Source: Candidatus Magasanikbacteria bacterium UBA922 (GTDB lineage: Bacteria > Patescibacteriota > Patescibacteriia > Magasanikbacterales > UBA922). Taken from it: 64,000 nt of DNA. Within the stretch, counting starts at the first letter, position 1. Each line of letters begins with the position of its first letter. Shown in pieces: positions 3,518-58,563 of the stretch. The DNA is taken from contig DBDW01000008.1 in NCBI GenBank assembly GCA_002293825.1, forward strand, positions 9,430 to 73,429, given 5' to 3'. The position numbers and the translations under genes are program-made. The notes beneath the pieces were generated by a model. The model had not been told where the DNA came from, did not search any database, and saw only the letters and a list, made by a program, of their open reading frames with translations.

Positions 3518-5131
3518 ATGGCACTCTATCACAAACACCGACCACAGACCTTCGATACTGTGATCCATCAGGAACACATTGTCACCACACTCAAAAACGA
3601 ATTGACCAGCGGTAAGATAGCGCATGCCTATCTCTTTTCAGGTCCACATGGTGTCGGTAAGACTACTACAGCCCGTATTTTAGCCAAATCTTTGAATTGT
3701 ACCGGACGAAAAAAAGATGACCCAAACCCTTGCGATACCTGCGATTCATGTAAAGATATCTCTCAATCACGGTCTATTGATGTGATTGAGATTGATGCAG
3801 CAAGCCAGACCGGTGTAGACAATGTACGAGAAAATATTATTGAAAATGCGCAATTCAAACCCACTCGTGGAACCTACAAAATTTTTATCGTGGACGAAGT
3901 ACATATGTTGTCCACAGCTGCCTTCAATGCGCTTCTAAAAACACTCGAAGAGCCACCCTCTCATGTAGTATTCATTCTGGCTACCACTGATGCACAAAAA
4001 CTTCCTGCAACAGTAGTTTCTCGTTGCCAACGTTTCACCTTTGGCAAAGTTCCTGATGAAACCATGAAAAAACATTTATCACATATTGCACAGGAAGAAG
4101 GTGTTACTATTGATGACGACATTCTACATGCGGTGGTACGCAAAGCGCGCGGTGGAGCACGTGATGCTGTAAGTATTCTCGATCAATTGATCGCGCTTGG
4201 CGAGACACACATTACCAAAGAAAACGCTTCTTTTGTGATGCCGACCACTTCAAACGAATCACAACTCTCCTTTCTCACACATATCGTACAAAAAAATTCC
4301 GCAGCCGCTCTTGAGAGCATTCGTACACTAAGTGAACATGGAATATACCCCTATATTTTCGCAGAGGAATTAGTAGGACTTATGCGAATATTCCTCATCG
4401 CTTCGGTAGATTCCAATCTCGCAAAAAAGGAGGCATATCTTCCCGATAGTGATTTTGCTACACTCGAAGCACTGACGAAACAAATTTCTCGTGGAGATAT
4501 TGTACGATTACTCGATCGCACCATTAGTCGTATGTATGAAATAAAATCTTCTCCACTTCCCTATCTACCACTTGAACTACTTGTCGTCGAATGGAGTGGA
4601 TCAGGAGACCATTCAGTTCCTACTACACCCGTGAACACTTCGCGAATCACACCACCAATTTCACCATCCACGCCACCACCGACAACAAAGACCACTACGC
4701 CGCCCTCAATTCCAGCACCTGAAACTGTAATCGTAACACCTGCAGAAGTAGCACCCACCTCTCCTTCACACACCACCGCGTCACCAGAAACCCAACAAAT
4801 TCCCGCATCAGTCGATGCCTCTACGGTATCTAAAGCATGGAACGCGGTTATCAAAGATATGGAGAAAAGCACCCCTTCTCTCATCTTTATCCTAAAAAAT
4901 GCAACACTCCGACCCGTGAATAATGGTGTTCTTCCTGTAGATGTAGCTTATAGTTTTCACCAAGATAAACTCAACCAAACTGCAAATAAGAAAAAGATAG
5001 AAGAAGGGCTTACACACCATCTCGGATTTCGTCTTACGCTCGACGTAAGCGTCGACCCGAGCAAACAACCGAGAGATGCTGCGGCAGATCTCAATGACCT
5101 TGCTGCGGCATTTGGCGGAAGCGTGGTCTAG
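3518..5131 (+). CDS. dnaX: DNA polymerase III subunit gamma/tau
   Basis: MALYHKHRPQTF start region. AAA+ motifs GPHGVGKTT and IFIVDEVHML, and a zinc module CDTCDSC. A P/T-rich linker follows, then a tau-like C-terminus. The track ORF extends upstream; ATG at 3518 fits the conserved N-terminus. Confidence 0.9.
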   Translation: MALYHKHRPQTFDTVIHQEHIVTTLKNELTSGKIAHAYLFSGPHGVGKTTTARILAKSLNCTGRKKDDPNPCDTCDSCKDISQSRSIDVIEIDAASQTGVDNVRENIIENAQFKPTRGTYKIFIVDEVHMLSTAAFNALLKTLEEPPSHVVFILATTDAQKLPATVVSRCQRFTFGKVPDETMKKHLSHIAQEEGVTIDDDILHAVVRKARGGARDAVSILDQLIALGETHITKENASFVMPTTSNESQLSFLTHIVQKNSAAALESIRTLSEHGIYPYIFAEELVGLMRIFLIASVDSNLAKKEAYLPDSDFATLEALTKQISRGDIVRLLDRTISRMYEIKSSPLPYLPLELLVVEWSGSGDHSVPTTPVNTSRITPPISPSTPPPTTKTTTPPSIPAPETVIVTPAEVAPTSPSHTTASPETQQIPASVDASTVSKAWNAVIKDMEKSTPSLIFILKNATLRPVNNGVLPVDVAYSFHQDKLNQTANKKKIEEGLTHHLGFRLTLDVSVDPSKQPRDAAADLNDLAAAFGGSVV

Positions 5132-5494: not shown

Positions 5495-6013
5495 TTAAAA
5501 AATATTTTTGTCTTCAGGTACACTTAAAATATTTTGATAAACTTTTTGATAATTTATTTCTTTATTTTTAATTTTTTTAAGTAGCAATTTACATGCTTCA
5601 ATAAAATCTTCAAAAAAATACTCAAAACAAATTATAAGACGTTTTCCTTTTTCATCCTCTAACAAAGACTTATTACATCCATGTTTCTTTTGTGAAAGGC
5701 CAATACAATTACCGGGTCGAGAACTGTGAACCATTGAACATCTCAAATTTGAATATAAATCAAATTTATGTCCTTTTTTATTATAAATATGATAGTTTTG
5801 AGGAAACAATTCTCTAATAGCCAAACGAAATCTTTTTTCTGATAATCCACTATCATCCCAATCATAAGCATCTAGACATGCCCCTAAAAATTCAATTGAT
5901 GAAGCAATGAGTATAAAACCTAGATAAGCATGCTCCGCCTCACCATTATCATTAATTGTCATTTTTTTAATTTCTTCAATCAAAGGACCTTTTATAAAAC
6001 TAGAAACTAACAT
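5495..6013 (-). CDS. hypothetical protein in an extremely AT-rich gene
   Basis: A 172-aa ORF with no recognisable domain. Local GC is far below the neighbours, and it is adjacent to a tRNA. Confidence 0.4.
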   Translation of the reverse strand: MLVSSFIKGPLIEEIKKMTINDNGEAEHAYLGFILIASSIEFLGACLDAYDWDDSGLSEKRFRLAIRELFPQNYHIYNKKGHKFDLYSNLRCSMVHSSRPGNCIGLSQKKHGCNKSLLEDEKGKRLIICFEYFFEDFIEACKLLLKKIKNKEINYQKVYQNILSVPEDKNIF

Positions 6014-14054: not shown

Positions 14055-14109
14055 AAATTCAATTTTAGAAACTGCAGGACAGAGGATTTCCCCTGCCCTG
14101 CAGTGTGTT

Positions 14110-14325
14110 TCAGGTATGCCCCTTTGTCTCCACTTCTTCGTCATCTGTGCCATCGTCTGAGACGACTGCAAGGCAGCCGATAAGGAAGAGGGTCCCCACT
14201 ACCAGTGGCGGAAGTCTGCCGTACGGGCGTGAGAGCCCGTGCTTGATGAGGTGCCGAGCCATCTGCCCGACTTTTCCTTTCCAGAGTTTCTTCTCTGCAC
14301 GACGAAACGAAGTGGTCACTCGCAT
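14110..14325 (-). CDS. hypothetical 71-aa protein with a C-terminal TM helix (cassette B, gene 3)
   Basis: Its ATG overlaps the stop of the upstream 56-aa ORF (ATGA coupling). GC3-rich. Confidence 0.4.
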   Translation of the reverse strand: MRVTTSFRRAEKKLWKGKVGQMARHLIKHGLSRPYGRLPPLVVGTLFLIGCLAVVSDDGTDDEEVETKGHT

Positions 14326-14495
14326 CACTCGTCCCCCTCGAACCACACCTGACCGAAGAAGATGAAGCTGATCGAGTTCACAGTCCTCTTGAACGCAAAG
14401 GACAATTCCTCGAAAAATTCAGCGATCCCCATGAAGACATTCCTACCCCACTCTTTCATGAACTCTTCGAAACGTGGAAGTCCGCCAATCATCAT
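14325..14495 (-). CDS. hypothetical 56-aa protein, MMIGGLPRFEEFMKEW... (cassette B, gene 2)
   Basis: Preceded by AAAAGGGG. GC3-rich. Absent from the ORF track because it is under 60 aa. Confidence 0.35.
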   Translation of the reverse strand: MMIGGLPRFEEFMKEWGRNVFMGIAEFFEELSFAFKRTVNSISFIFFGQVWFEGDE

Positions 14496-14621
14496 GCACA
14501 CCCCTTTTCACCAAGACTTATTTCTTGCTTGGCTTATCACTACCCGAAAATAATTCCAGGTACTGATAAACATAGGTTCAGGGTGCGTCTCAAATAGAAA
14601 ACGTACCCTGAACCCCACCCT

Positions 14622-14963
14622 TTAGGCAAGCGCAACCTCGTTCACCGGCCAGTACCGGGTCGGAGACACGCGAGGAGGTGTACGAAGAATCGTACCGCCG
14701 GACCTGACGAGCACCTCGACATCTTTGACACGCTCAGAGATCTCGTCGTCCTGGACGACGAGGATGGTCGCACCAGTCTTCTTCACCATGACCACGAAGC
14801 CACCGGTGTAGCTCTGGTAGATGACAGAGACCGTGTACCTCACACCCTGCGAAAAACAGACGTGCGTCTGCACCCCACGAGGATTGATCGGACCACACCC
14901 TTCACGCAGGTCGAAGAGTTTCGAAATTTCCGCCAGAAAATTCTCGGCCACTTCACGAGTCAT
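14622..14963 (-). CDS. hypothetical 113-aa protein (cassette B, gene 1)
   Basis: ATG at 14963 with a strong SD (AAGGAGAGGGAG). GC3-rich. Followed by a 10-bp perfect-stem hairpin, GGTTCAGGGT...ACCCTGAACC. Confidence 0.5.
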   Translation of the reverse strand: MTREVAENFLAEISKLFDLREGCGPINPRGVQTHVCFSQGVRYTVSVIYQSYTGGFVVMVKKTGATILVVQDDEISERVKDVEVLVRSGGTILRTPPRVSPTRYWPVNEVALA

Positions 14964-15099
14964 ATCACTCCCTCTCCTTGTTAAGTGTTTTGTCCAAAAG
15001 GACACGTGACCCTAGCACACTCCTTGAACTTTTGCAAGTCCGAACATTGCCCACAGGATAATACCAAAAAACAATCTTTTTTGCAAGGTTGAGCAAAAG

Positions 15100-15149: not shown

Positions 15150-15315
15150 CCATATTCTACTGGAACTGGGGTGAAATTCCCCGACTGTGCCGCAACGGTA
15201 AAAGTCCGATCTTGTAGAATATGCATTCTCCCGAGCAGGAACTAATACACCCTATCTTTGTGGTATCGGTGTATTATATATACACATTCCTCCGTTCAGG
15301 GGAATTTTTTTATCT
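15150..15315 (+). ncRNA. cobalamin riboswitch (compact variant) with terminator expression platform (RS2)
   Basis: GGAACUGGGGUGAAAUUCCCCGACUGUGCCGCAACGGUAAAAGUCCG matches the cobalamin core (GGUGaAAuUCC ... CCGCaACnGUaA). P1 is AUUCUAC/GUAGAAU. A terminator, AUUCCUC-cguuca-GGGGAAU followed by UUUUUUU, sits 5 nt before the ATG of the DUF4430 gene. Confidence 0.6.
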
Positions 15316-15320
15316 CAATT

Positions 15321-15920
15321 ATGCACCAAAAGCTTTTATACTTCCTTATCACGCTTTTTACCACTGCAACACTGGTAAGTGGATATTCAGTAATCAGAGA
15401 TCAAAAATCACCTGTCGAAAAAAATACAGTTTCTACACAATTAAATACTGACACTCCAGCACACACACAAAACATTGAATCAGATATTAAAAATTCCATT
15501 CACTATACCGAAACTACTCAAAAAAAAGAGCCAGAATCAGACATTGAGAACAGCGAGATCATAAATACTTCCACTACTCCAGACACAGAAACTCATCCTT
15601 ACGAAATATTTGAAGCGAAAGTGACGCTCGCGATCGATGGAAAAAATCTTCATATCCCCTATCACGATAGCATGACCGCTGAACGTGCGATGCGGGACGT
15701 TGCACAACGGTATCCTGAATCATTCCACTATGAAGGAATCGAATATGGCGGGGACCTCGGCACATTCGTGACGGCGATCAACGGTAAGAAAGAAAATCCA
15801 CAAGAAAAAATGCGCTGGATCCTGTATCTCAACGGAAGCCCATCACCCAAAGGAATATCAATACTCACACTTAATCCAGACGATATACTCTCATGGAACT
15901 ATGAAAAAGAAACTCTATAG
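15321..15920 (+). CDS. secreted DUF4430 (transcobalamin beta-domain-like) protein
   Basis: Signal/TM followed by a C-terminal domain: TLAIDGKNLHIPY...YEGIEYGGDLGTFVTAINGK...WILYLNG. This family is typically found downstream of B12 riboswitches. Confidence 0.6.
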   Translation: MHQKLLYFLITLFTTATLVSGYSVIRDQKSPVEKNTVSTQLNTDTPAHTQNIESDIKNSIHYTETTQKKEPESDIENSEIINTSTTPDTETHPYEIFEAKVTLAIDGKNLHIPYHDSMTAERAMRDVAQRYPESFHYEGIEYGGDLGTFVTAINGKKENPQEKMRWILYLNGSPSPKGISILTLNPDDILSWNYEKETL

Positions 15921-18603
15921 CTTGCTCGTAATCATTTCACTTCTTTTCTCAAATATCGGGTTTGTATACGCATCAGAAGAATCTATCGAAGAAACGACTG
16001 CCGAAACCACAGAACAAATTCCCCAAGAAAATACTCCAGACGAAGCCGTAGAATCACCAACCTCAACTCCTGATACAATACCTGAAGATCTTCCTACGCG
16101 TACAGCAAAGCTCAGAATTGAAACATCTAAAGGGGTCTTGTTTGAAGATTCCGTTACCTTTAGTGCATGCAAACCATATGAGACGTCTGAAGAATATACA
16201 CTCAACGCACAATGCCTCATTGAGCAAACGGACGGATTGGACGTAGTTTGGACTCCAGGTGATGACGCATGGCTTGATCGAATAAACCAATACGGCACAG
16301 ACCTTTCAACGGGCTTATACTGGGCATACTTTGCAAATCTCGAATATGGGTCAGTCGCGTTGAATCATCTACCGGTACATGAAGGAGATGAGGTGTTGCT
16401 TGTGTACGGGGTAAACCCGCTTAAGATAGAAGTAGACACTCTTTCACCCACCCTTTACACAACAACAACGGTACGTGTATATGAATTTGGTTTTGATGAG
16501 TTTTGGAGTCCTGTATGGCTTCCTTCAAATAGTAGTACTCTATTACTGGATGAAAATTCGATTGCCGTCTCTCAAAATGGAGAAGCAATTCTCACATTTG
16601 ATACGCTCGACACACAAACACTTCGAGCAATTAAGACAGGACTTGCCTCAAGCAATAGTATTGAAGTGTACCCCATATTGCCAACAACCAAAGCTCAACT
16701 ACATGTAGTGGCACACGGACAAACTCTTTTCCACGACACCATAGAGGTGACAGCATGCATACCTAACGAAACACAGACTGATAGATACACATTAAACGCA
16801 CGATGCTTAATTGATCAAGCAATCGGCATTACACCTACCTGGAGCACCTATGGTACTGATTCCTTTCTCGATTCAATCAATGGTATAGACAACAACTTCG
16901 AAACCGGACTGTATTGGGGATATTTTATCAATCATGAATATGCTTCAACTGCGCTCAATCAATATATTCTCACTGAAGGAGATGAACTATTGATTACATA
17001 CAATACTATCCCACTCAAACTCACATTTTCGACCACTACCCCTACCACCGGAGACACAGTCACCGTATCTCTATACGAATTTGGTTTCGATGAGTTTTGG
17101 AGTCCTGCATGGCTAGCAGCGACCGGGGCATTATTCACAATAAACGGCACACCTGTAACCACCACTGATCACACTTATACATTTATCCCTACGACCACGA
17201 TTCCATATCTCATTCGTGCAGAAAAAGAAGGATATATCACGATTGAAAAAACCTTGGTGGCAACCACGACCCAATCTACCGGTGAATCAACTGAAAATAA
17301 TGAAGGAACAGGAGGCAATGGCAGCTCATCAGGGGGAAATATCACCAATCCTGTACAGCGTATGATCCAATTCCTCGATAGCACACAAAATGCCGACGGA
17401 TCATTTGGTTCAACTCCATTCCTGACTGATTGGGCAGCACTTGCCTATGGATCGTGGACAGACTCTTCACAAGGATTGAACGCTCTCAAAAATTACCTCA
17501 TCAGTGACCCTACCCCACTAGATGGTCCAAACGCAACCACAAATTACGCGCGCCGTAGTATGGCACTCATGGCACTCGGTATCAATCCTTATTCTGGAAC
17601 ACCCACCAACTATATTGAAAAAATAATTTCAGGATTTGACGGGACTCAATTCGGAGATACCGGTCTCATAAATGATGATATATTCGCACTCGTCCCATTA
17701 GTACACGCAGGGTATTCCAATAATCCGATTGTGGCTTCTACCACAAAATTTATCATTGAAAATCAATCAGCAAACGGATCATTTGGCTCAATCGATCTGA
17801 CCGCGGCTGCAATCCAAGCACTCTCTCCATTCTCATCTGACGACAATGTGCGCACCGCACTCACACACGCACGAACATATCTCAAAAATGCACAACGCAT
17901 TGATGCTGGTTTTGGCGATGTATATGCGACAGGATGGGTTCTCCAAGCAATCAGCGCACTTGGTGAACACATCTCTGACTGGCTAGTCAACGGCATCTCG
18001 CCAGTATCATATCTTACCAACGCACAAGCATCTGATGGAGGATTATTGAGTAGTGATGTACGAGCTAATCGTATCTGGTCTACCAGCTACGCAATTCCTG
18101 GACTGCTTGGCACCCCTTGGAATAAAATTCTTGCATCATTTGAGGCTCCAGTCACCACACCTGAAACCAGTGGACAAGGCTCATCTACCGCTACTACTAC
18201 CTTCGACATCATTACCCCTACCACCACTGTGGATAGCACAACCACCTCGACACCCATTTCACCAGAGATTACTATTACTGAAAACAGTGTAGATACGCTC
18301 GAACAAGGTTCCACATACACATCTTCCTCAATGCCGACCCCCATTATCACCTCTCGACAAGTAGAAAGCCAGACATCAATCGTACGAGGAGAACGAATTA
18401 TCGAGGATGTAGAACCATCTACAACACCCTCATCAACACCTACGAACACCCCTGAATCAACACTCGCGCCTGATGCAGATGGTGCGCAAACACTATCACA
18501 CACACCTACTCCCATCACCCGATACATCTTCTGGTCTTCATTTACTGCACTACTACTCGCACTCGGATATAGCTGGTTTATCCGCCCCACTTCAAAAAAA
18601 TAA
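15901..18603 (+). CDS. large surface-anchored protein combining two DUF4430-like repeats with prenyltransferase/squalene-oxidase-like repeats
   Basis: Signal peptide. Two repeats of about 110 aa (VTFSAC..YTLNA(Q/R)CLI...G.YW.YF.N.EY...ALN). QxxDGSFGS-type alpha-toroid repeats. An S/T/P-rich stalk and a C-terminal TM anchor. The layout resembles a transcobalamin alpha-plus-beta architecture. Confidence 0.55.
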   Translation: MKKKLYSLLVIISLLFSNIGFVYASEESIEETTAETTEQIPQENTPDEAVESPTSTPDTIPEDLPTRTAKLRIETSKGVLFEDSVTFSACKPYETSEEYTLNAQCLIEQTDGLDVVWTPGDDAWLDRINQYGTDLSTGLYWAYFANLEYGSVALNHLPVHEGDEVLLVYGVNPLKIEVDTLSPTLYTTTTVRVYEFGFDEFWSPVWLPSNSSTLLLDENSIAVSQNGEAILTFDTLDTQTLRAIKTGLASSNSIEVYPILPTTKAQLHVVAHGQTLFHDTIEVTACIPNETQTDRYTLNARCLIDQAIGITPTWSTYGTDSFLDSINGIDNNFETGLYWGYFINHEYASTALNQYILTEGDELLITYNTIPLKLTFSTTTPTTGDTVTVSLYEFGFDEFWSPAWLAATGALFTINGTPVTTTDHTYTFIPTTTIPYLIRAEKEGYITIEKTLVATTTQSTGESTENNEGTGGNGSSSGGNITNPVQRMIQFLDSTQNADGSFGSTPFLTDWAALAYGSWTDSSQGLNALKNYLISDPTPLDGPNATTNYARRSMALMALGINPYSGTPTNYIEKIISGFDGTQFGDTGLINDDIFALVPLVHAGYSNNPIVASTTKFIIENQSANGSFGSIDLTAAAIQALSPFSSDDNVRTALTHARTYLKNAQRIDAGFGDVYATGWVLQAISALGEHISDWLVNGISPVSYLTNAQASDGGLLSSDVRANRIWSTSYAIPGLLGTPWNKILASFEAPVTTPETSGQGSSTATTTFDIITPTTTVDSTTTSTPISPEITITENSVDTLEQGSTYTSSSMPTPIITSRQVESQTSIVRGERIIEDVEPSTTPSSTPTNTPESTLAPDADGAQTLSHTPTPITRYIFWSSFTALLLALGYSWFIRPTSKK

Positions 18604-21378: not shown

Positions 21379-21550
21379 CATAAACATCAGGTAATTAATA
21401 CAGCACGTACAGTATATCACATGCATATGCACAGATATCTATCCGTATGTATATTGTTCTTATTATGTAAAATTGTTATGCTATGTGTTCCCCTGGCCAT
21501 GCAGCATGCCGGGGTTCGACAGAAATGCTGCCCAAAGGAGAAATGGCCAC

Positions 21551-21871
21551 ATGGCCAAAGTGCTGAATGTTACTCTCTCCGGTGATCCAAGAAATCCGAG
21601 CGGTCCCTGCATCTCACACGCGTTCAACAACTACCGTTCATTCTTCAAAGACACGATCGTGTTCTACGGAGAAACTGACTCGGGTGTTCATGTCGAACTC
21701 GAGGTGAAGGTGAGCGAACTGCGATGGCTCGAAAAAACAGGCTCCTGGCAAGAAATCAAAGGGGTGACTGCTGACTCAAGCTCATCGTACGTGGCACAGC
21801 TCGAGACGGATAAAAAGATCGGTTCCATCCGATGCACCTCTCTCGCCAAGGCGTCCTACGCTGAAGCCTGA
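21551..21871 (+). CDS. hypothetical 106-aa protein (GC-rich cassette C)
   Basis: AAGGAG SD and GC3-rich codons. Followed by an 11-bp perfect inverted repeat, TGCCCACACAC...GTGTGTGGGCA. A possible promoter, TTGTTC-17-TATGCT, lies upstream. Confidence 0.45.
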   Translation: MAKVLNVTLSGDPRNPSGPCISHAFNNYRSFFKDTIVFYGETDSGVHVELEVKVSELRWLEKTGSWQEIKGVTADSSSSYVAQLETDKKIGSIRCTSLAKASYAEA

Positions 21872-26560: not shown

Positions 26561-26730
26561 TATCCTACTATTTTTGATACAAAAACACAACCATAGTACT
26601 GTGCATGCGTTGTGTATCAAAAAAACCACCCATCGTATGTAGTAAGTATCTTCGATATAATCGACTACTTACCACAATCGAAGTGTGGGTGGTTTTTCTG
26701 CACACACACCTCGATAGGCATGTGCCACAC

Positions 26731-27432
26731 TCACTCGATCGGAAAACGGTGACGAACTTCGAAGTGCACTCCACGCTTATCCAGCATGAACTGCACCACA
26801 TCGACCGACACGTAGAGATTCTCCCGCCCACTCGCAGGAAAATCTTCCATCACCTTCGGAAGTCCGCTCTTTTCGATCGCTTCTGCGGACATCGCTCCGG
26901 TAAACCGAGCGATCGTCATGTGCGTACCCCAGGGAAGTGGAAGCTCGGCCCCTTTCCGATGACAGGATCCGAGCATCTCGGACATGGAGTGTACCAGCTC
27001 TGCAGTGGGATACGTCTTCAGGATTGCCGACACCTGATTGAATGTCGGGCGATCGATTCTTGCCGCAAGACGAGACCGATCCCGATTGCCCCACGTGCGA
27101 ATTGTTTCCTCGACAGCATCGTAGCAGGCGTCCAAGATCTGGACCACCTTTTCTTCGGACTCCTGCACGCAGTCCACGAGACCGATCACCGTATGTAGAT
27201 CACGAGTCTCATACACCAGTGCCGACGGAACTGCTTTTTTGAGCTTTTTGAGCCACGGTGCGAACGCCTCCCTGATGTTCTGGTGTGGTCTCATGACGAT
27301 TCCAACACCACGCGAAGGTCGTGTGAACACCGGATCTTCCAGAACTCCTTCTTTCCGTGCTTTCCAGTGCCCCGCCCGAATCTCGTCGTAGATTTTATCC
27401 TGCCGATGAATAAACGCAGGAAAATTGAGCAT
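26731..27432 (-). CDS. 2H phosphoesterase superfamily protein (LigT/ThpR-like) in GC-rich cassette D
   Basis: Two HxT/S motifs (LHTVIGLV and HMTIARF), GC3-rich codons and a strong SD (GGAGGGGGG) before MLNFPAF. The track ORF is 14 codons longer. Confidence 0.5.
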   Translation of the reverse strand: MLNFPAFIHRQDKIYDEIRAGHWKARKEGVLEDPVFTRPSRGVGIVMRPHQNIREAFAPWLKKLKKAVPSALVYETRDLHTVIGLVDCVQESEEKVVQILDACYDAVEETIRTWGNRDRSRLAARIDRPTFNQVSAILKTYPTAELVHSMSEMLGSCHRKGAELPLPWGTHMTIARFTGAMSAEAIEKSGLPKVMEDFPASGRENLYVSVDVVQFMLDKRGVHFEVRHRFPIE

Positions 27433-27544
27433 GATTCCCCCCTCCCATATCGAATGTTGTCTGTACCACTTCATCGACCCTATGTCGAAAAAGTACTACG
27501 ATTATCTATCATATCACACTCCTTTTGTCAACCGATATTCATAC

Positions 27545-53304: not shown

Positions 53305-53709
53305 TTATTTTTTGATTTTCTTTCCATGAGGATCCACATCTGGATTACCGAGAAATTTCGCGAGACGCTCGATCACCTTGTCTGAAAACGCATGCTCCAG
53401 TTTGTGAGCTTCCGCATGAATATCCGACGACGGAATATCGAGTACTGTATGAAGAAATACTTCAATCAAACGATGCTTGTATGTGAGTTTTTCTGCAAGA
53501 CCATGCCCTCGTGTAGTCAATGTAATACCTCCACTTCGATTGGTCTTGATCAATCGTGCACGCTCGAGATCATGCACACGTTCGGAAACCGTAGAACGAG
53601 CGAGCGAAAGATATCGTGCAATATCGATAATACGAACCTGTACCCCTTGTTCACCAAGACAATGAATTGCTCTCACATAATCTTCTCTTGTTGATGTAAT
53701 TTTTTTCAT
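53305..53709 (-). CDS. DtxR/MntR-family metal-dependent repressor
   Basis: N-terminal wHTH (DYVRAIHCL...RIIDIARYLSLARSTVSERV) and metal-site residues in DIHAEAHKLEHAF. Confidence 0.85.
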   Translation of the reverse strand: MKKITSTREDYVRAIHCLGEQGVQVRIIDIARYLSLARSTVSERVHDLERARLIKTNRSGGITLTTRGHGLAEKLTYKHRLIEVFLHTVLDIPSSDIHAEAHKLEHAFSDKVIERLAKFLGNPDVDPHGKKIKK

Positions 53710-53718
53710 ATATCCTAT

Positions 53719-53738
53719 TTGTTCGTATATACGAACAA
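53719..53738. promoter_or_regulatory. candidate MntR/DtxR-type operator
   Basis: Perfect 20-bp palindrome TTGTTCGTATATACGAACAA, 10 nt upstream of the repressor start codon. Confidence 0.5.
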
Positions 53739-53895
53739 TACTATACCACGACCTATTGATATCGTCAAGAAGCCTGTGTTCCTCTCATGATACATTGACA
53801 ACAAAACCCTACTATGATAGCTTCTTTCCAAGTTTGGACTGTCTCAGTCTAGACTCTAGCCAACAACCAACCCTTGCGACGACCAAGGAGGACAT

Positions 53896-53991
53896 ATGGA
53901 CCCGCCGAAGAAAAACCTGGTGAAAAAAGATAACATGATGGACAAGTCCAGCATCGGCAAGACGGCGCGCACGACGACCGCGGCACGCTGA
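53896..53991 (+). CDS. hypothetical 31-aa lysine-rich peptide (GC-rich cassette E, first ORF)
   Basis: A consensus SD (AAGGAGGA) sits 6 nt before the ATG. GC3-rich codons, unlike the AT-rich host genes. Confidence 0.35.
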   Translation: MDPPKKNLVKKDNMMDKSSIGKTARTTTAAR

Positions 53992-54144
53992 TCCACGACA
54001 CGGAGGTCGAGGATCCGCACCCCCCCACCGTAAGGAAAGGAAATGAAAAAGTATGCAGTCTTCTAGCGATTCCAACCTTTGGCTTTCGTGACCACAGTCA
54101 ACCTTACTACCGCAGATGCGGTACGAAAAAAGCTGTGCTCGCAC

Positions 54145-54199
54145 CTAGAGCCACACCTATCACACGAACAACAACTCAAGTGATATGGTGTGGCTCTAG
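54145..54199. repeat. long nested inverted repeat (13-bp perfect stem plus 6-bp inner stem)
   Basis: CTAGAGCCACACC-TATCAC...GTGATA-tg-GGTGTGGCTCTAG. Confidence 0.6.
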
Positions 54200-54220
54200 A
54201 CTACTATTATCATCTATCTC

Positions 54221-54243
54221 AAAAACGCCTATAAGGCGTTTTA
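54221..54243. terminator. bidirectional intrinsic terminator
   Basis: AAAAACGCC-tataa-GGCGTTTTATT. Confidence 0.55.
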
Positions 54244-54254
54244 TTGGTTTTCTA

Positions 54255-54283
54255 TTGACAATTTCTCGTTATTTGTGTACCAT
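54255..54283 (+). promoter_or_regulatory. near-consensus sigma-70 promoter
   Basis: TTGACA, a 17-nt spacer, then TACCAT. Confidence 0.5.
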
Positions 54284-54376
54284 CTCACGGCCTGTTTTAC
54301 CTGTGTTCCAGTATTCACTGATACACAACAGGTTACATAACTACACGAGTAACAACAATACACTTTTGGAGCAATC

Positions 54377-54601
54377 GTGCACGATCCTCGTTTTTCCTCG
54401 TTCTTCTACGACACCCTCCCTGACAAGAGTGAAAGCGCCCGATCGACCACGCTCGTCCCCGACGACTCGATCCCCACGGGACCGCTACACCCGCGTCGAG
54501 TACGGGCAGGAGGCAACCGCCGGATCCAGACCGACAACGGTCTCATGAAGTTCACCGGCGAGGAGACGCCAGGCAACACAGGTGACGGAAACGTCGCCTA
54601 A
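54377..54601 (+). CDS. hypothetical 74-aa acidic/proline-rich protein (GC-rich cassette E, second ORF)
   Basis: GTG start with GGAG 5 nt upstream and GC3-rich codons. The ORF on the opposite strand is probably frame noise. Confidence 0.4.
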   Translation: MHDPRFSSFFYDTLPDKSESARSTTLVPDDSIPTGPLHPRRVRAGGNRRIQTDNGLMKFTGEETPGNTGDGNVA

Positions 54602-54705
54602 GAAGCACTCTCTGTAGTTACCGGCGCTGTATTCAACCGACTTCTCGTAGTTGGGTACGGCGTCCGGACTCAACTTGTTCATTCTAAGATAATCTTATCT
54701 ACAAG

Positions 54706-54765
54706 AAAAAGCAGATAGCAAGTAGCAAACTAATTTGATACTACACTATCTGCTTTTTTATTTTG
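54706..54765. terminator. bidirectional terminator hairpin with a large loop
   Basis: AAAAAGCAGATAG...(loop)...CTATCTGCTTTTTTATTTT, between the convergent cassette E gene and guaC. Confidence 0.5.
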
Positions 54766-54775
54766 AACAAAATCT

Positions 54776-55741
54776 TTACGTAATTACATGTTCGACATTT
54801 CTAATATCATAGAGTGTCGTTCCTCCACTATACGAAATTGCACTTTGCAAATCTTCTTCAATCTCTTGTAACTTTTGCTCATACGTCATCGTATTGCATT
54901 CGATGTGACGTAAAAATCCTTCTACATGATGGCGCGTACCTTTATTATGCTCTGATGCTGAGCCAAAATATATCTTCTTTACTTCCCCATCAACACTGAT
55001 CGTCTCACCAGGAGAATCGACACATGCACTAAACATACCCCCAATCATCACCATATCTGCTCCTGCATGAATCGCTTTTGCAATATCTCCATTATGCTTG
55101 ATTCCTCCATCTGCGATAAGTATGGTTTTTAATTTTTTTTCTTTTTTCACTTGCCCACATGCACTCACACACGAATACATCGGATACGTAAATCCTGTCT
55201 TAAATTTGGTCGAACATGCAGACCCGCCACCAATTCCTATTTTTACCGCATCAGCCCCCCATTCCGACAAATCCACCAACGCGTCTCCACTTGCCACATT
55301 TCCTGCAATAATAAAACATTCAGGAAAATGTTTTCTCGTATGTTCCAAAATTTTCTTGACTGCCAGACTATGTCCATGTGCAATATCGATTGTTACCGCA
55401 TCAACACGAAGATTCTTTGACTTCAAGGTATCGATTAGTGCGTAATCAGCATCTTTTACTCCGAGAGAAATTGAAATAAAAATATCTTGATTCTTCTCGA
55501 TCCACGCAACAATCTCTTCGTATGCATAAAATCTATGGAGAATATAAAAATATTGATGTTCTGCCATCCAGCGTGCAAGCGTAAAATCAATGGTGCATTT
55601 CATATTTGCAGGCATCACCGGCACCTTCCACTGTTTTCCAGCATACTGTACCGACGTATTACACTCTGATCGAGAATTCACGACACAGAGTTTTGGCACA
55701 AGCCACACCTGTGAATATTCGAGTGCTTTTTCCATAGACAT
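54776..55741 (-). CDS. GMP reductase / IMPDH-family TIM-barrel oxidoreductase lacking CBS domains
   Basis: IADGGIKHNGDIAKAIHAGADMVMIGGMFSA, and a catalytic Cys region (GIGGGSACST). Confidence 0.7.
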   Translation of the reverse strand: MSMEKALEYSQVWLVPKLCVVNSRSECNTSVQYAGKQWKVPVMPANMKCTIDFTLARWMAEHQYFYILHRFYAYEEIVAWIEKNQDIFISISLGVKDADYALIDTLKSKNLRVDAVTIDIAHGHSLAVKKILEHTRKHFPECFIIAGNVASGDALVDLSEWGADAVKIGIGGGSACSTKFKTGFTYPMYSCVSACGQVKKEKKLKTILIADGGIKHNGDIAKAIHAGADMVMIGGMFSACVDSPGETISVDGEVKKIYFGSASEHNKGTRHHVEGFLRHIECNTMTYEQKLQEIEEDLQSAISYSGGTTLYDIRNVEHVIT

Positions 55742-58359: not shown

Positions 58360-58563
58360 ATGGTAGAAAAAATCGTCACCTTCCCCAAGGAAGGTACTGA
58401 GCAAGAAATCCGAAACATGCACAGTCAAGAAGCCAACCTGGCAATCGTTGCCCAGGCAAATGACTGGCTTACCCAGAAGGCCGACAGCATCGACGTTCTC
58501 CATCGGTCAGTCCACACGAGTGGAGGCCTACTGGTCATCACGGTCTGGTATAACGATCGGTGA
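58360..58563 (+). CDS. hypothetical 67-aa protein (GC-rich cassette F)
   Basis: Promoter TTGACA-17-TATTTT at 58273..58301. SD AGGAG and GC3-rich codons. Followed by a 10-bp inverted repeat, CTGATTCCCG...CGGGAATCAG. Confidence 0.5.
   Translation: MVEKIVTFPKEGTEQEIRNMHSQEANLAIVAQANDWLTQKADSIDVLHRSVHTSGGLLVITVWYNDR

Follow-up and report, generated by a model that had tools for sequence, protein, structure and literature searches.

Results

Organization of the mntR-guaC gap

The 64,000-nt window of Candidatus Magasanikbacteria bacterium UBA922 (contig DBDW01000008.1) analyzed here belongs to a genome of 42% G+C whose housekeeping genes are dense and lie mainly on the minus strand. Between mntR (53305-53709, minus strand) and a guaC-like gene of the IMPDH family (54776-55741, minus strand) there is a gap of 1,066 nt. 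An original prediction, made from the letters alone, had placed in this gap two tiny open reading frames (ORFs) with expression signals around a 55-nt hairpin, and ORF1, the hairpin, a terminator, a second promoter and ORF2 do all lie where it had put them. It had missed a seven-codon ORF (54043-54066), two stem-loops (53830-53855 and 54289-54334) and a 3' hairpin (54621-54667). Together these elements form two units on the plus strand: unit 1, at approximately 53830-54250 with a predicted transcript of ~420 nt, and unit 2, at approximately 54290-54765. The reading that we favor, with a confidence only slightly above even, is that they are two independently transcribed, clade-specific small-protein/mini-ORF cassettes lodged in a spacer.

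Three public contigs are 100% identical to the DNA of the locus, which is therefore a natural sequence. The relatives compared with it are denoted by L-numbers (L084, L167, L173 and so on) that stand for their loci or contigs; L167 carries two units, A and B. A close strain, L084-L086, ~97% identical in the gap, was found through an antisense ORF recorded by gene callers, and the contigs of distant relatives were fetched through MntR homologs. Among 185,579 species genomes searched, the closest relative by alanyl-tRNA synthetase (AlaRS) is 66% identical, and the matches are metagenome-assembled genomes of the Patescibacteria (candidate phyla radiation, CPR), for example Uhrbacteria and Saccharibacteria. 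An AlaRS-guided scan of genome contigs gave no similarity to the window's spacer, and in metagenome contigs scanned with the guaC-like protein every match was at ≤48% identity and uninformative. The order alaS-guaC-spacer-mntR, or a variant of it, is kept in genomes with ~72-77% MntR identity, and the neighbors in all relatives are alaS, the guaC-like gene, mntR and manganese transporter genes. The relatives' spacers are 1.5-2.6 kb long, with a G+C content of 44-55% against 40-44% for the locus, always richer; in L178, whose MntR is 69% identical, the G+C-rich island is absent.

By blastn, only three elements align across the distant relatives: the end with the mntR operator and promoter, the terminator of guaC and a terminator module that recurs. 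Despite this scant alignment, the spacers, read in the orientation of the window, hold the same kinds of cassettes. A module order of promoter, 5' stem-loop, Shine-Dalgarno (SD) sequence and an ORF beginning M(x)DPP is common to L167 (unit B), L173, L174 and L175, and continues in each with one or two SD-led seven-codon ORFs, a long hairpin and a terminator. Because these modules recur in relatives with compensatory and synonymous changes, the features of the locus go beyond chance. The original prediction had named conservation in homologous segments as its own test: both ORFs are conserved there, and the units appear, from their sequence, to be expression-competent. Its statement that no homology is recognizable holds for databases and fails for related genomes. 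Pfam gave no family for eight ORFs of the window (E-values up to 10) or for six ORFs of the relatives (E-values up to 1). As judged from the alignments, the comparison demonstrates purifying selection on promoters, ORFs (the mini-ORF included) and hairpins alike, and on the genomes and databases searched the cassettes are a previously undescribed family restricted to one Patescibacteria clade.

Unit 1 and the M(x)DPP ORF family

The unit-1 promoter (53795-53823, plus strand) consists of the -35 hexamer TTGACA at 53795-53800, a 17-nt spacer and an extended -10 element, TGaTAGCTT, at 53815-53823, with the -10 hexamer at 53818-53823. The TTGACA-17-TG-n-TAGCTT element is conserved in four lineages; its arrangement, TTGACA-17-TGnTAnnnT, recurs in L167-B, L173 and L174, where the letters of the spacer vary and the arrangement is kept. 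It is the alignment with relatives that identifies TGaTAGCTT as the true -10 of the window. The original prediction had paired the same TTGACA with TATGAT at 53813-53818; these hexamers are 12 nt apart and so do not make a promoter, and a promoter scan was silent on them.

At the predicted transcript start is a 5'-terminal stem-loop, AAGTTTGGACTG-tct-CAGTCTAGACT (53830-53855, plus strand). L167-B and L173 retain its outer stem, AAGTTTGG.../...CCAGACTT, which takes the form GTCGG/CCGAC in L174; the stem-loop is unchanged in L084. The SD sequence AAGGAGGA (53885-53892, plus strand) ends 3 nt before the ATG of ORF1, and not at the predicted spacing of 6 nt. ORF1 (53896-53991, plus strand) encodes a Lys/Thr-rich, hydrophilic peptide of 31 aa, MDPPKKNLVKKDNMMDKSSIGKTARTTTAAR, which begins MDPPKKNLVKKDN. 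The 195 nt that comprise leader and ORF1 (53802-53996) have not a single change relative to L084, against a proportion of synonymous differences (pS) of 0.06-0.11 in the flanking genes and a difference of 3.3% over the whole gap; seven substitutions and one insertion/deletion (indel) lie directly past the ORF1 stop codon.

ORF1 belongs to a family of M(x)DPP small ORFs, F1, with members at the equivalent position in L167, L173, L174, L175 and L171. The F1 ORFs encode 31-61 aa. M(x)DPP is present in all of them, encoded by varying codons (GAC/GAT; CCG/CCC/CCT), the next ~8 residues are weakly conserved and the rest is variable in sequence and length, the conserved part amounting to only 5-13 residues. 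Elsewhere, ~2 Mb of Patescibacteria loci contain just one SD-led M(x)DP[PR] start, and the F1 profile found one further member among 5.8 billion proteins, P0125, on a Patescibacteria-like contig. The sequence D-P-P-K/M/T, which is of the XPPX pause-motif type, is found in ORF1 and its F1 homologs from L167, L171, L173, L174 and L175.

A conserved beginning and a remainder that varies between 31 and 61 aa is also how the precursor of a ribosomally synthesized and post-translationally modified peptide (RiPP) might look, with MxDPPKxN... as the N-terminal leader and a hypervariable C-terminal core. This option of the original prediction is highly improbable: no maturase or other maturation enzyme, protease or transporter gene occurs in the spacers or flanks of seven relatives, the supposed leader has very few residues, the cores are basic and hydrophilic and almost free of Cys, and part of the supposed core, the stretch TDRDRYAR, is kept between the F1 proteins of L167 and L173. 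Two other ideas about ORF1 were discarded. An alternative genetic code or UGA read-through is contradicted by host ORFs that are intact under table 11 and by the frame after the stop, which is shifted in L084; an anti-SD role for the Pro codons is contradicted by their poor and unconserved pairing with the SD sequence.

A seven-codon ORF with an invariant UAG

Downstream of ORF1 the SD sequence AAGGAAAGGAA leads the mini-ORF ATG AAA AAG TAT GCA GTC TTC TAG, encoding MKKYAVF (54032-54066 with the SD sequence, 54043-54066 for the ORF itself, plus strand). Eight copies are present in six loci, every one of them SD-led, and give the consensus M[KR][KL][YFH]AVF. All codon differences at the Ala, Val and Phe positions are synonymous (Val GTC/GTG/GTT/GTA, Ala GCA/GCG), and the mini-ORFs of the window and L084 differ once, by a synonymous TAT to TAC. 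The stop codon is TAG in 8/8 copies, when host genes end in TAA (43), TAG (5) or TGA (3). In every copy a hairpin starts 2-11 nt past the stop. No copies were found elsewhere in ~2 Mb of loci, and viral contigs scanned for the mini-ORF pattern returned nothing. To our knowledge, an ORF of seven codons that is conserved at the amino acid level and has a fixed UAG is among the shortest conserved bacterial ORFs. Read-through of the UAG, or a pyrrolysine-like extension, was considered and set aside; the downstream frame is open and its peptide is not conserved.

Very short peptides can act on the ribosome that makes them: the "E-peptides" of macrolide resistance have four to six residues (e.g., MRLFV), certain minigenes trap peptidyl-tRNA, and an Ala two residues before the C terminus is a known context for drug-dependent stalling at the peptidyl-transferase center. 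The heptapeptide might thus be the product of unit 1, or act on its own ribosome, with ORF1 a separate small basic protein. Conservation is at the level of the peptide, the Ala is at the appropriate place, and a basic second residue followed by a hydrophobic tail gives the heptapeptide an apparent M-R-L-F-V-type likeness. At seven residues, however, the peptide is longer than characterized E-peptides. No gene for resistance, and none that might be regulated, lies nearby, and the invariant UAG and the hairpin would be left unexplained. We consider this explanation very improbable.

A second type of SD-led mini-ORF, M-x-N-K-D-P-P-x-stop, was seen in L172 (4501-4527, minus strand, MSNKDPPH) and L175 (358-384, plus strand, MKNKDPPL). 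It again puts D-P-P in a tiny ORF.

Hairpins and terminator of unit 1

A small hairpin, UACCGC-AGAU-GCGGUA (54108-54123, plus strand), was found by folding and is invariant in L084. The 55-nt hairpin follows at 54145-54199 (plus strand), and the nested inverted repeat of 13 + 6 bp that had been predicted for it is confirmed, as 13 perfect outer pairs and an inner 6-bp stem; the fold of the 151 nt that contain it has a z-score of -7.6. It is invariant in L084. Homologous long hairpins occur in L167, L175, L173 and L174, with five pairs changed on both sides, i.e., compensatory changes, and 92.9% of the cells in the long-hairpin alignment are paired compared with 38-49% when the partners are slid. 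The hairpin was rejected as an integron attC site because it has no matching core-site motif.

Unit 1 is closed by an intrinsic terminator, AAAACGCC-TATAA-GGCGTTTT with a T-run (54222-54252, plus strand; stem-loop 54222-54242), which is symmetric and could function for the minus strand too. L084 retains the stem but has an inverted loop and longer A/T tracts. The corresponding module, AAACGCC-loop-GGCG(A)TTTTTT, closes cassettes in L167 (twice), L173, L174, L175 and L176.

Unit 2 and its ORF2

The unit-2 promoter, TTGACA-17-TACCAT (54255-54283, plus strand), has 10/12 matches to consensus. Both hexamers are invariant in L084, where 3/17 spacer bases have changed, and L176 has TTGACA-17-TATCCT ahead of its ORF2 ortholog. 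The leader stem-loop (54289-54334, plus strand) has an apical motif, CAGU-AUUC-ACUG, that is shared with the leaders of L176, L167-A, L167-B, L173 and L174, and one apical pair shows a compensatory change (GC to UA) among the relatives. A covariance model of this stem-loop, R1, scores the window's copy at 44 bits and detects no other in the window; it found only the training cassettes and their orthologs.

An SD sequence, GGAG (54368-54371), lies 5 nt upstream of the GTG start codon of ORF2 (54377-54601, plus strand). The protein of 74 aa, MHDPRF..., is acidic and P/T/G-rich, begins MHDPR and is probably disordered, as suggested by a single-sequence AlphaFold2 model with a mean predicted local distance difference test score (pLDDT) of 59 and no secondary structure. 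Its frame and stop codon are kept in L084. L176, in which MntR aligns at 72-77% identity, encodes an ortholog directly beside mntR that is likewise of 74 aa, with no indel, 75% amino acid identity and the same GTG CAC GAY CCT CGT TTT start. Identity between the two ORFs is 0.83/0.91/0.73 by codon position, highest at position 2 and lowest at position 3, and the ratio of nonsynonymous to synonymous divergence (dN/dS) is 0.35. The ORF2 unit of L176 stands alone by mntR, and in relatives the two units are found separately. Among 1.84 billion representative proteins ORF2 has no homolog, only two marginal low-complexity matches.

Downstream, a hairpin in the 3' untranslated region (54621-54667, plus strand) is near-invariant between the window and L176: pair changes are only G-U to A-U, when synonymous sites of flanking genes are saturated. 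The unit ends in a bidirectional terminator at 54706-54765 (hairpin 54706-54758, with 13-bp arms and a 27-nt loop) that serves unit 2 on the plus strand and the guaC-like gene on the minus strand, and is 85-90% conserved in L167, L169 and L171.

In public annotations (JGI, NCBI/Logan), 54135-54548 (plus strand) is given as a 137-aa ORF that runs across the hairpin, the terminator and the second promoter. It is almost certainly spurious, judging from a stop codon in the 97%-identical L084; the true small ORFs are missing from the protein collection. The 137-aa ORF and a 110-aa ORF on the minus strand were rejected as genes on account of stops or a frameshift in L084, and so was a 65-aa minus-strand ORF overlapping ORF2, whose stop is lost in L084 and whose start is absent from L176.

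The order small ORFs, hairpin, terminator, further ORF is that of a classical attenuator, in which the fate of the 54222 terminator, and hence read-through into ORF2 or, in relatives, into the next cassette, would depend on whether ORF1 and the mini-ORF are translated. In keeping with this, the long hairpin of L173 begins 6 nt past the mini-ORF stop. That spacing ranges from 6 to ~95 nt, however, and is not conserved. ORF2 is preceded by a promoter of its own, whose hexamers are kept in both L084 and L176, and in L176 its unit is alone beside mntR; the gene downstream of unit 1 is different in every relative. No regulated gene lies downstream on the unit-1 transcript, and no alternative, antiterminator-like pairing appeared in the folds. 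An attenuator is, in our estimation, improbable.

Composition, synonymous constraint and the coding status of the cassettes

Two islands, 53851-54125 and 54351-54675, reach 60-66% G+C. The G+C content at third codon positions (GC3) is 0.81 in ORF1, 0.72 in ORF2 and 0.84-0.97 in F1 ORFs, compared with ~0.35 for the genome; values for 51 host genes span 0.14-0.46 and, with one exception, fall within 0.25-0.46. When the window is compared with L176, pS is 0.32 in ORF2 and 0.62-0.77, i.e., saturated, in flanking genes, and nonsynonymous divergence (dN) is near equal (0.15 in ORF2, 0.16-0.18 in flanking genes). A pS of ~0.3 is roughly what would be expected if third positions switch only between G and C, which is our estimate rather than a computed value. 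Since ORF2 has this value when its flanks are saturated, its G/C-ending codons look selected rather than the fading trace of a recent transfer. Selection appears, from this comparison, to keep G or C at third codon positions although the genome is A+T-rich.

It could be supposed instead that the islands are foreign G+C-rich DNA or decaying pseudogenes in a recombination hot spot, with ORFs and signals arising by chance. The composition is atypical for a 42% genome, the content of the spacer differs between relatives, several assemblies break within it, and G+C-rich DNA can be expected to contain long ORFs on either strand. That explanation is largely refuted by the conservation just described, which is that of purifying selection on ORFs, promoters and hairpins. 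The G+C bias persists in orthologs whose flanks are saturated, comparison with L084 and L176 shows the antisense or alternative ORFs of 137, 110 and 65 aa to be disrupted or unstable, and searches of phage and plasmid databases (blastn, "distant" setting) found no similarity to the locus. We give it very little credence, and the same applies to its variant, a type I toxin-antitoxin system. The original prediction had suggested a toxin-antitoxin pair, whereas the peptides are hydrophilic or disordered, and neither ORF1 nor ORF2 encodes the hydrophobic or membrane-active peptide of a type I system. The only minus-strand promoter-like site in the gap is that of mntR, no antisense promoter was found, minus-strand ORFs are not conserved and the two units separate in relatives. 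An actinobacterial origin of the island is also unsupported, because the 323-aa membrane protein in the relatives' spacers belongs to a Patescibacteria-only hypothetical family. The G+C-rich islands of the window, compared among themselves, share no sequence.

A more serious alternative is that the cassettes are two purely non-coding structured small RNAs (sRNAs), whose function lies in the stem-loops and the G+C-rich body and whose ORFs are incidental. In its favor, covariation accompanies the conservation of the 5' and 3' hairpins, L084 shows no change in the untranslated leader of unit 1, synonymous sites of ORF2 are constrained, and each unit has its own promoter and terminator. The coding signals speak against it. 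ORF2 retains a coding pattern, free of indels and with a dN/dS of 0.35; the AVF residues of the mini-ORF are kept across all four Val codons and always with an SD sequence; and M(x)DPP is kept with varying codons. Rfam gave no match, even at E-values up to 10: at gathering thresholds the whole window yields only four tRNAs and an AdoCbl-II riboswitch, all elsewhere, the 53650-54850 segment at E-values up to 10 yields only hairpin-driven microRNA-type noise far below threshold, and L167, L169 and L171 yield nothing. We therefore judge the non-coding explanation unlikely.

The mntR side of the locus

Outside the cassettes, the mntR leader contains a perfect 20-bp palindrome, TTGTTCGTATATACGAACAA (53719-53738), a putative MntR operator. 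It is unique in the window, where 0.01 would be expected by chance, and ~90% conserved in L167, L171 and L169. The mntR promoter, TTGACG-17-TATAGT with a TG (53740-53768, minus strand), is back-to-back with the unit-1 promoter, and the same element is found in L167. The original prediction had suggested that the cassettes may also interfere with metal regulation; the cassette island always adjoins mntR, but this sole operator-like palindrome lies ~60 nt outside the unit-1 promoter. In L172, L174 and L178 an NRAMP (MntH-type) transporter gene follows mntR, replacing the ZnuA/ABC manganese transporter genes; the island upstream of mntR occurs with either type of transporter, L172 and L174 included, and L178 is without it.

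Discussion

One of the features that the cassettes bring together is a conserved small ORF on an RNA with conserved structure. The original prediction had left the choice between a toxin-antitoxin pair, an sRNA or leader-peptide regulator, and a RiPP-like precursor. The second is favored by the conserved 5' and 3' RNA structures, the D-P-P start and the mini-ORF, and the other two are unsupported.

Dual-function small RNAs that also encode small proteins are exemplified by SR1/SR1P, RNAIII/delta-haemolysin and SgrS/SgrT. The cassettes display what defines such an RNA that is also a small-protein mRNA, in that each has a promoter and an intrinsic terminator of its own and combines a small ORF with RNA structure, both conserved. 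Like SR1/SR1P, RNAIII and SgrS, they are stand-alone transcripts of a few hundred nucleotides with conserved stem-loops. Unlike these RNAs, unit 1 has two cistrons, one of them of seven codons, and there is no sequence or Rfam relationship. TnaC, ErmCL, the cat/cmlA leaders and SpeFL are regulatory peptides that arrest the ribosome or stall its termination upstream of a regulated gene. The mini-ORF resembles the TnaC/ErmCL class in being tiny, conserved at the amino acid level and possessed of a fixed stop beside an RNA structure; it differs from that class in that neither a ligand nor a regulated gene is evident at the cassettes. We know of no description of AVF-UAG as an arrest sequence. In Gram-positive bacteria, the ermC leader and the aprE and cryIIIA (STAB-SD) elements stabilize mRNA by a 5' stem-loop or a stalled ribosome. 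The stem-loop at the extreme 5' end of unit 1, the strong SD sequences and possibly paused ribosomes near the 5' end would, by analogy, be similar.

We suggest, tentatively and at well below even confidence, that control is exerted through ribosome pausing and dwell time, a mechanism that we infer from sequence features. The D-P-P at codons 2-5 of ORF1 would act as an EF-P-dependent pause, and the paused ribosome would cover the 5' end together with the SD sequence and start codon. Elongation would be slowed further by the rare codons that end in G or C. The mini-ORF would end at its invariant UAG, which is read by RF1 only, beside the hairpin. Ribosome occupancy and the 5' and 3' stem-loops would jointly determine the half-life of the mRNA and the yield of peptide, so that the cassettes would act as reporters of translation capacity (EF-P, prolyl-tRNA and RF1). 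DPP is among the strong proline pause motifs (PMC4739656), and leader ORFs with proline codons that respond to EF-P are known from mgtP (PMC3641672, PMC5299641). The mgtP ORF of the Salmonella mgtCBR leader is, like ORF1, a very short SD-led ORF with conserved consecutive proline codons (PMC3641672, PMC5299641). It sits in the leader of the operon that it controls by means of alternative stem-loops, whereas ORF1 has its own terminator and no downstream gene. In ORF1 the motif, a putative stall site, is at codons 2-5.

A broader proposition, more speculative still, is that the cassettes typify a "translation-gauge" class, in which the regulated quantity is ribosome dwell time on the RNA and not a downstream gene. 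The first cistron would open with D-P-P, the last would end in xxxAVF-UAG against a hairpin, selection would hold rare G/C-ending codons in place, and dwell time would set the level of small disordered proteins, of the heptapeptide or of the RNA. The effector may be any of these three: a small protein, the heptapeptide or the RNA.

Several observations weigh against our reading of the cassettes. No regulated gene lies downstream on their transcripts, no alternative antiterminator pairing was found in the folds, and the distance from mini-ORF stop to long hairpin is not conserved. ORF2 carries D-P-R instead of D-P-P. The low synonymous divergence of ORF2 could stem from later exchange between lineages combined with relaxed constraint on the protein. 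Finally, the comparison spans only four to six independent lineages, which makes the covariation statistics thin.

The genomes of the CPR are minimal, and their small proteins and RNA-level regulation are almost unexplored. The locus illustrates that "empty" G+C-rich spacers in these bacteria can hold selected genes overlooked by annotation pipelines, and that the nucleotide composition of the cassette messages appears functional in itself. If the pausing model is true, the cassettes would serve as a simple, natural indicator of how active EF-P, prolyl-tRNA and RF1 are.

Additional features of the relatives and of the window

A conserved A+T-rich leader of ~140 nt (...CATGCATTCGGTCAGT...TTGCACAACTGACT...GCTGAGTGGTGA...) is next to mntR in L167 (~4540-4690), L169 (~5670-5820) and L171 (~4885-5035), on the minus strand in each. 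It precedes the 323-aa Patescibacteria-only membrane protein in L167 and L169 or a 66-aa ORF in L171. The leader has no Rfam match, is absent from the window and is possibly a new cis-regulatory RNA.

Assemblies break at or inside the spacer in L003 (1,082 nt upstream of mntR) and in L176 and L177 (both 543 nt upstream), which points to variation among strains at the island, or to trouble there with coverage or composition. The segment 44301-56817 of the window is strongly mosaic relative to L084. Identity is 100% in rpoA and >99% in the S4, S11 and S13 genes, falls to 88-90% in S9 and L13 and to 79% in alaS, and is 42% in one intergenic spacer, a pattern that indicates recombination between lineages. 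A gene for a TrwB/TraG-like type IV coupling protein (PF10412; 61102-63087, minus strand), known from precomputed Pfam annotation of an identical contig, is ~6 kb from the locus.

Other intergenic G+C-rich islands in the window, at 14622-15005 (minus strand), 21473-21871 (plus strand), 26605-27474 (both strands) and 58360-58563 (plus strand), are probably the other "cassettes" of the original prediction. They contain SD-led ORFs with a GC3 of 0.57-0.65 (genome, ~0.35), are without the leader stem-loop and have no sequence in common with the locus. The AdoCbl-II (cobalamin) riboswitch (15152-15222, plus strand, 44.8 bits) is preceded by a G+C-rich island at 14076-14975 and lies just upstream of ORFs at 15258-15920 and 15901-18603.

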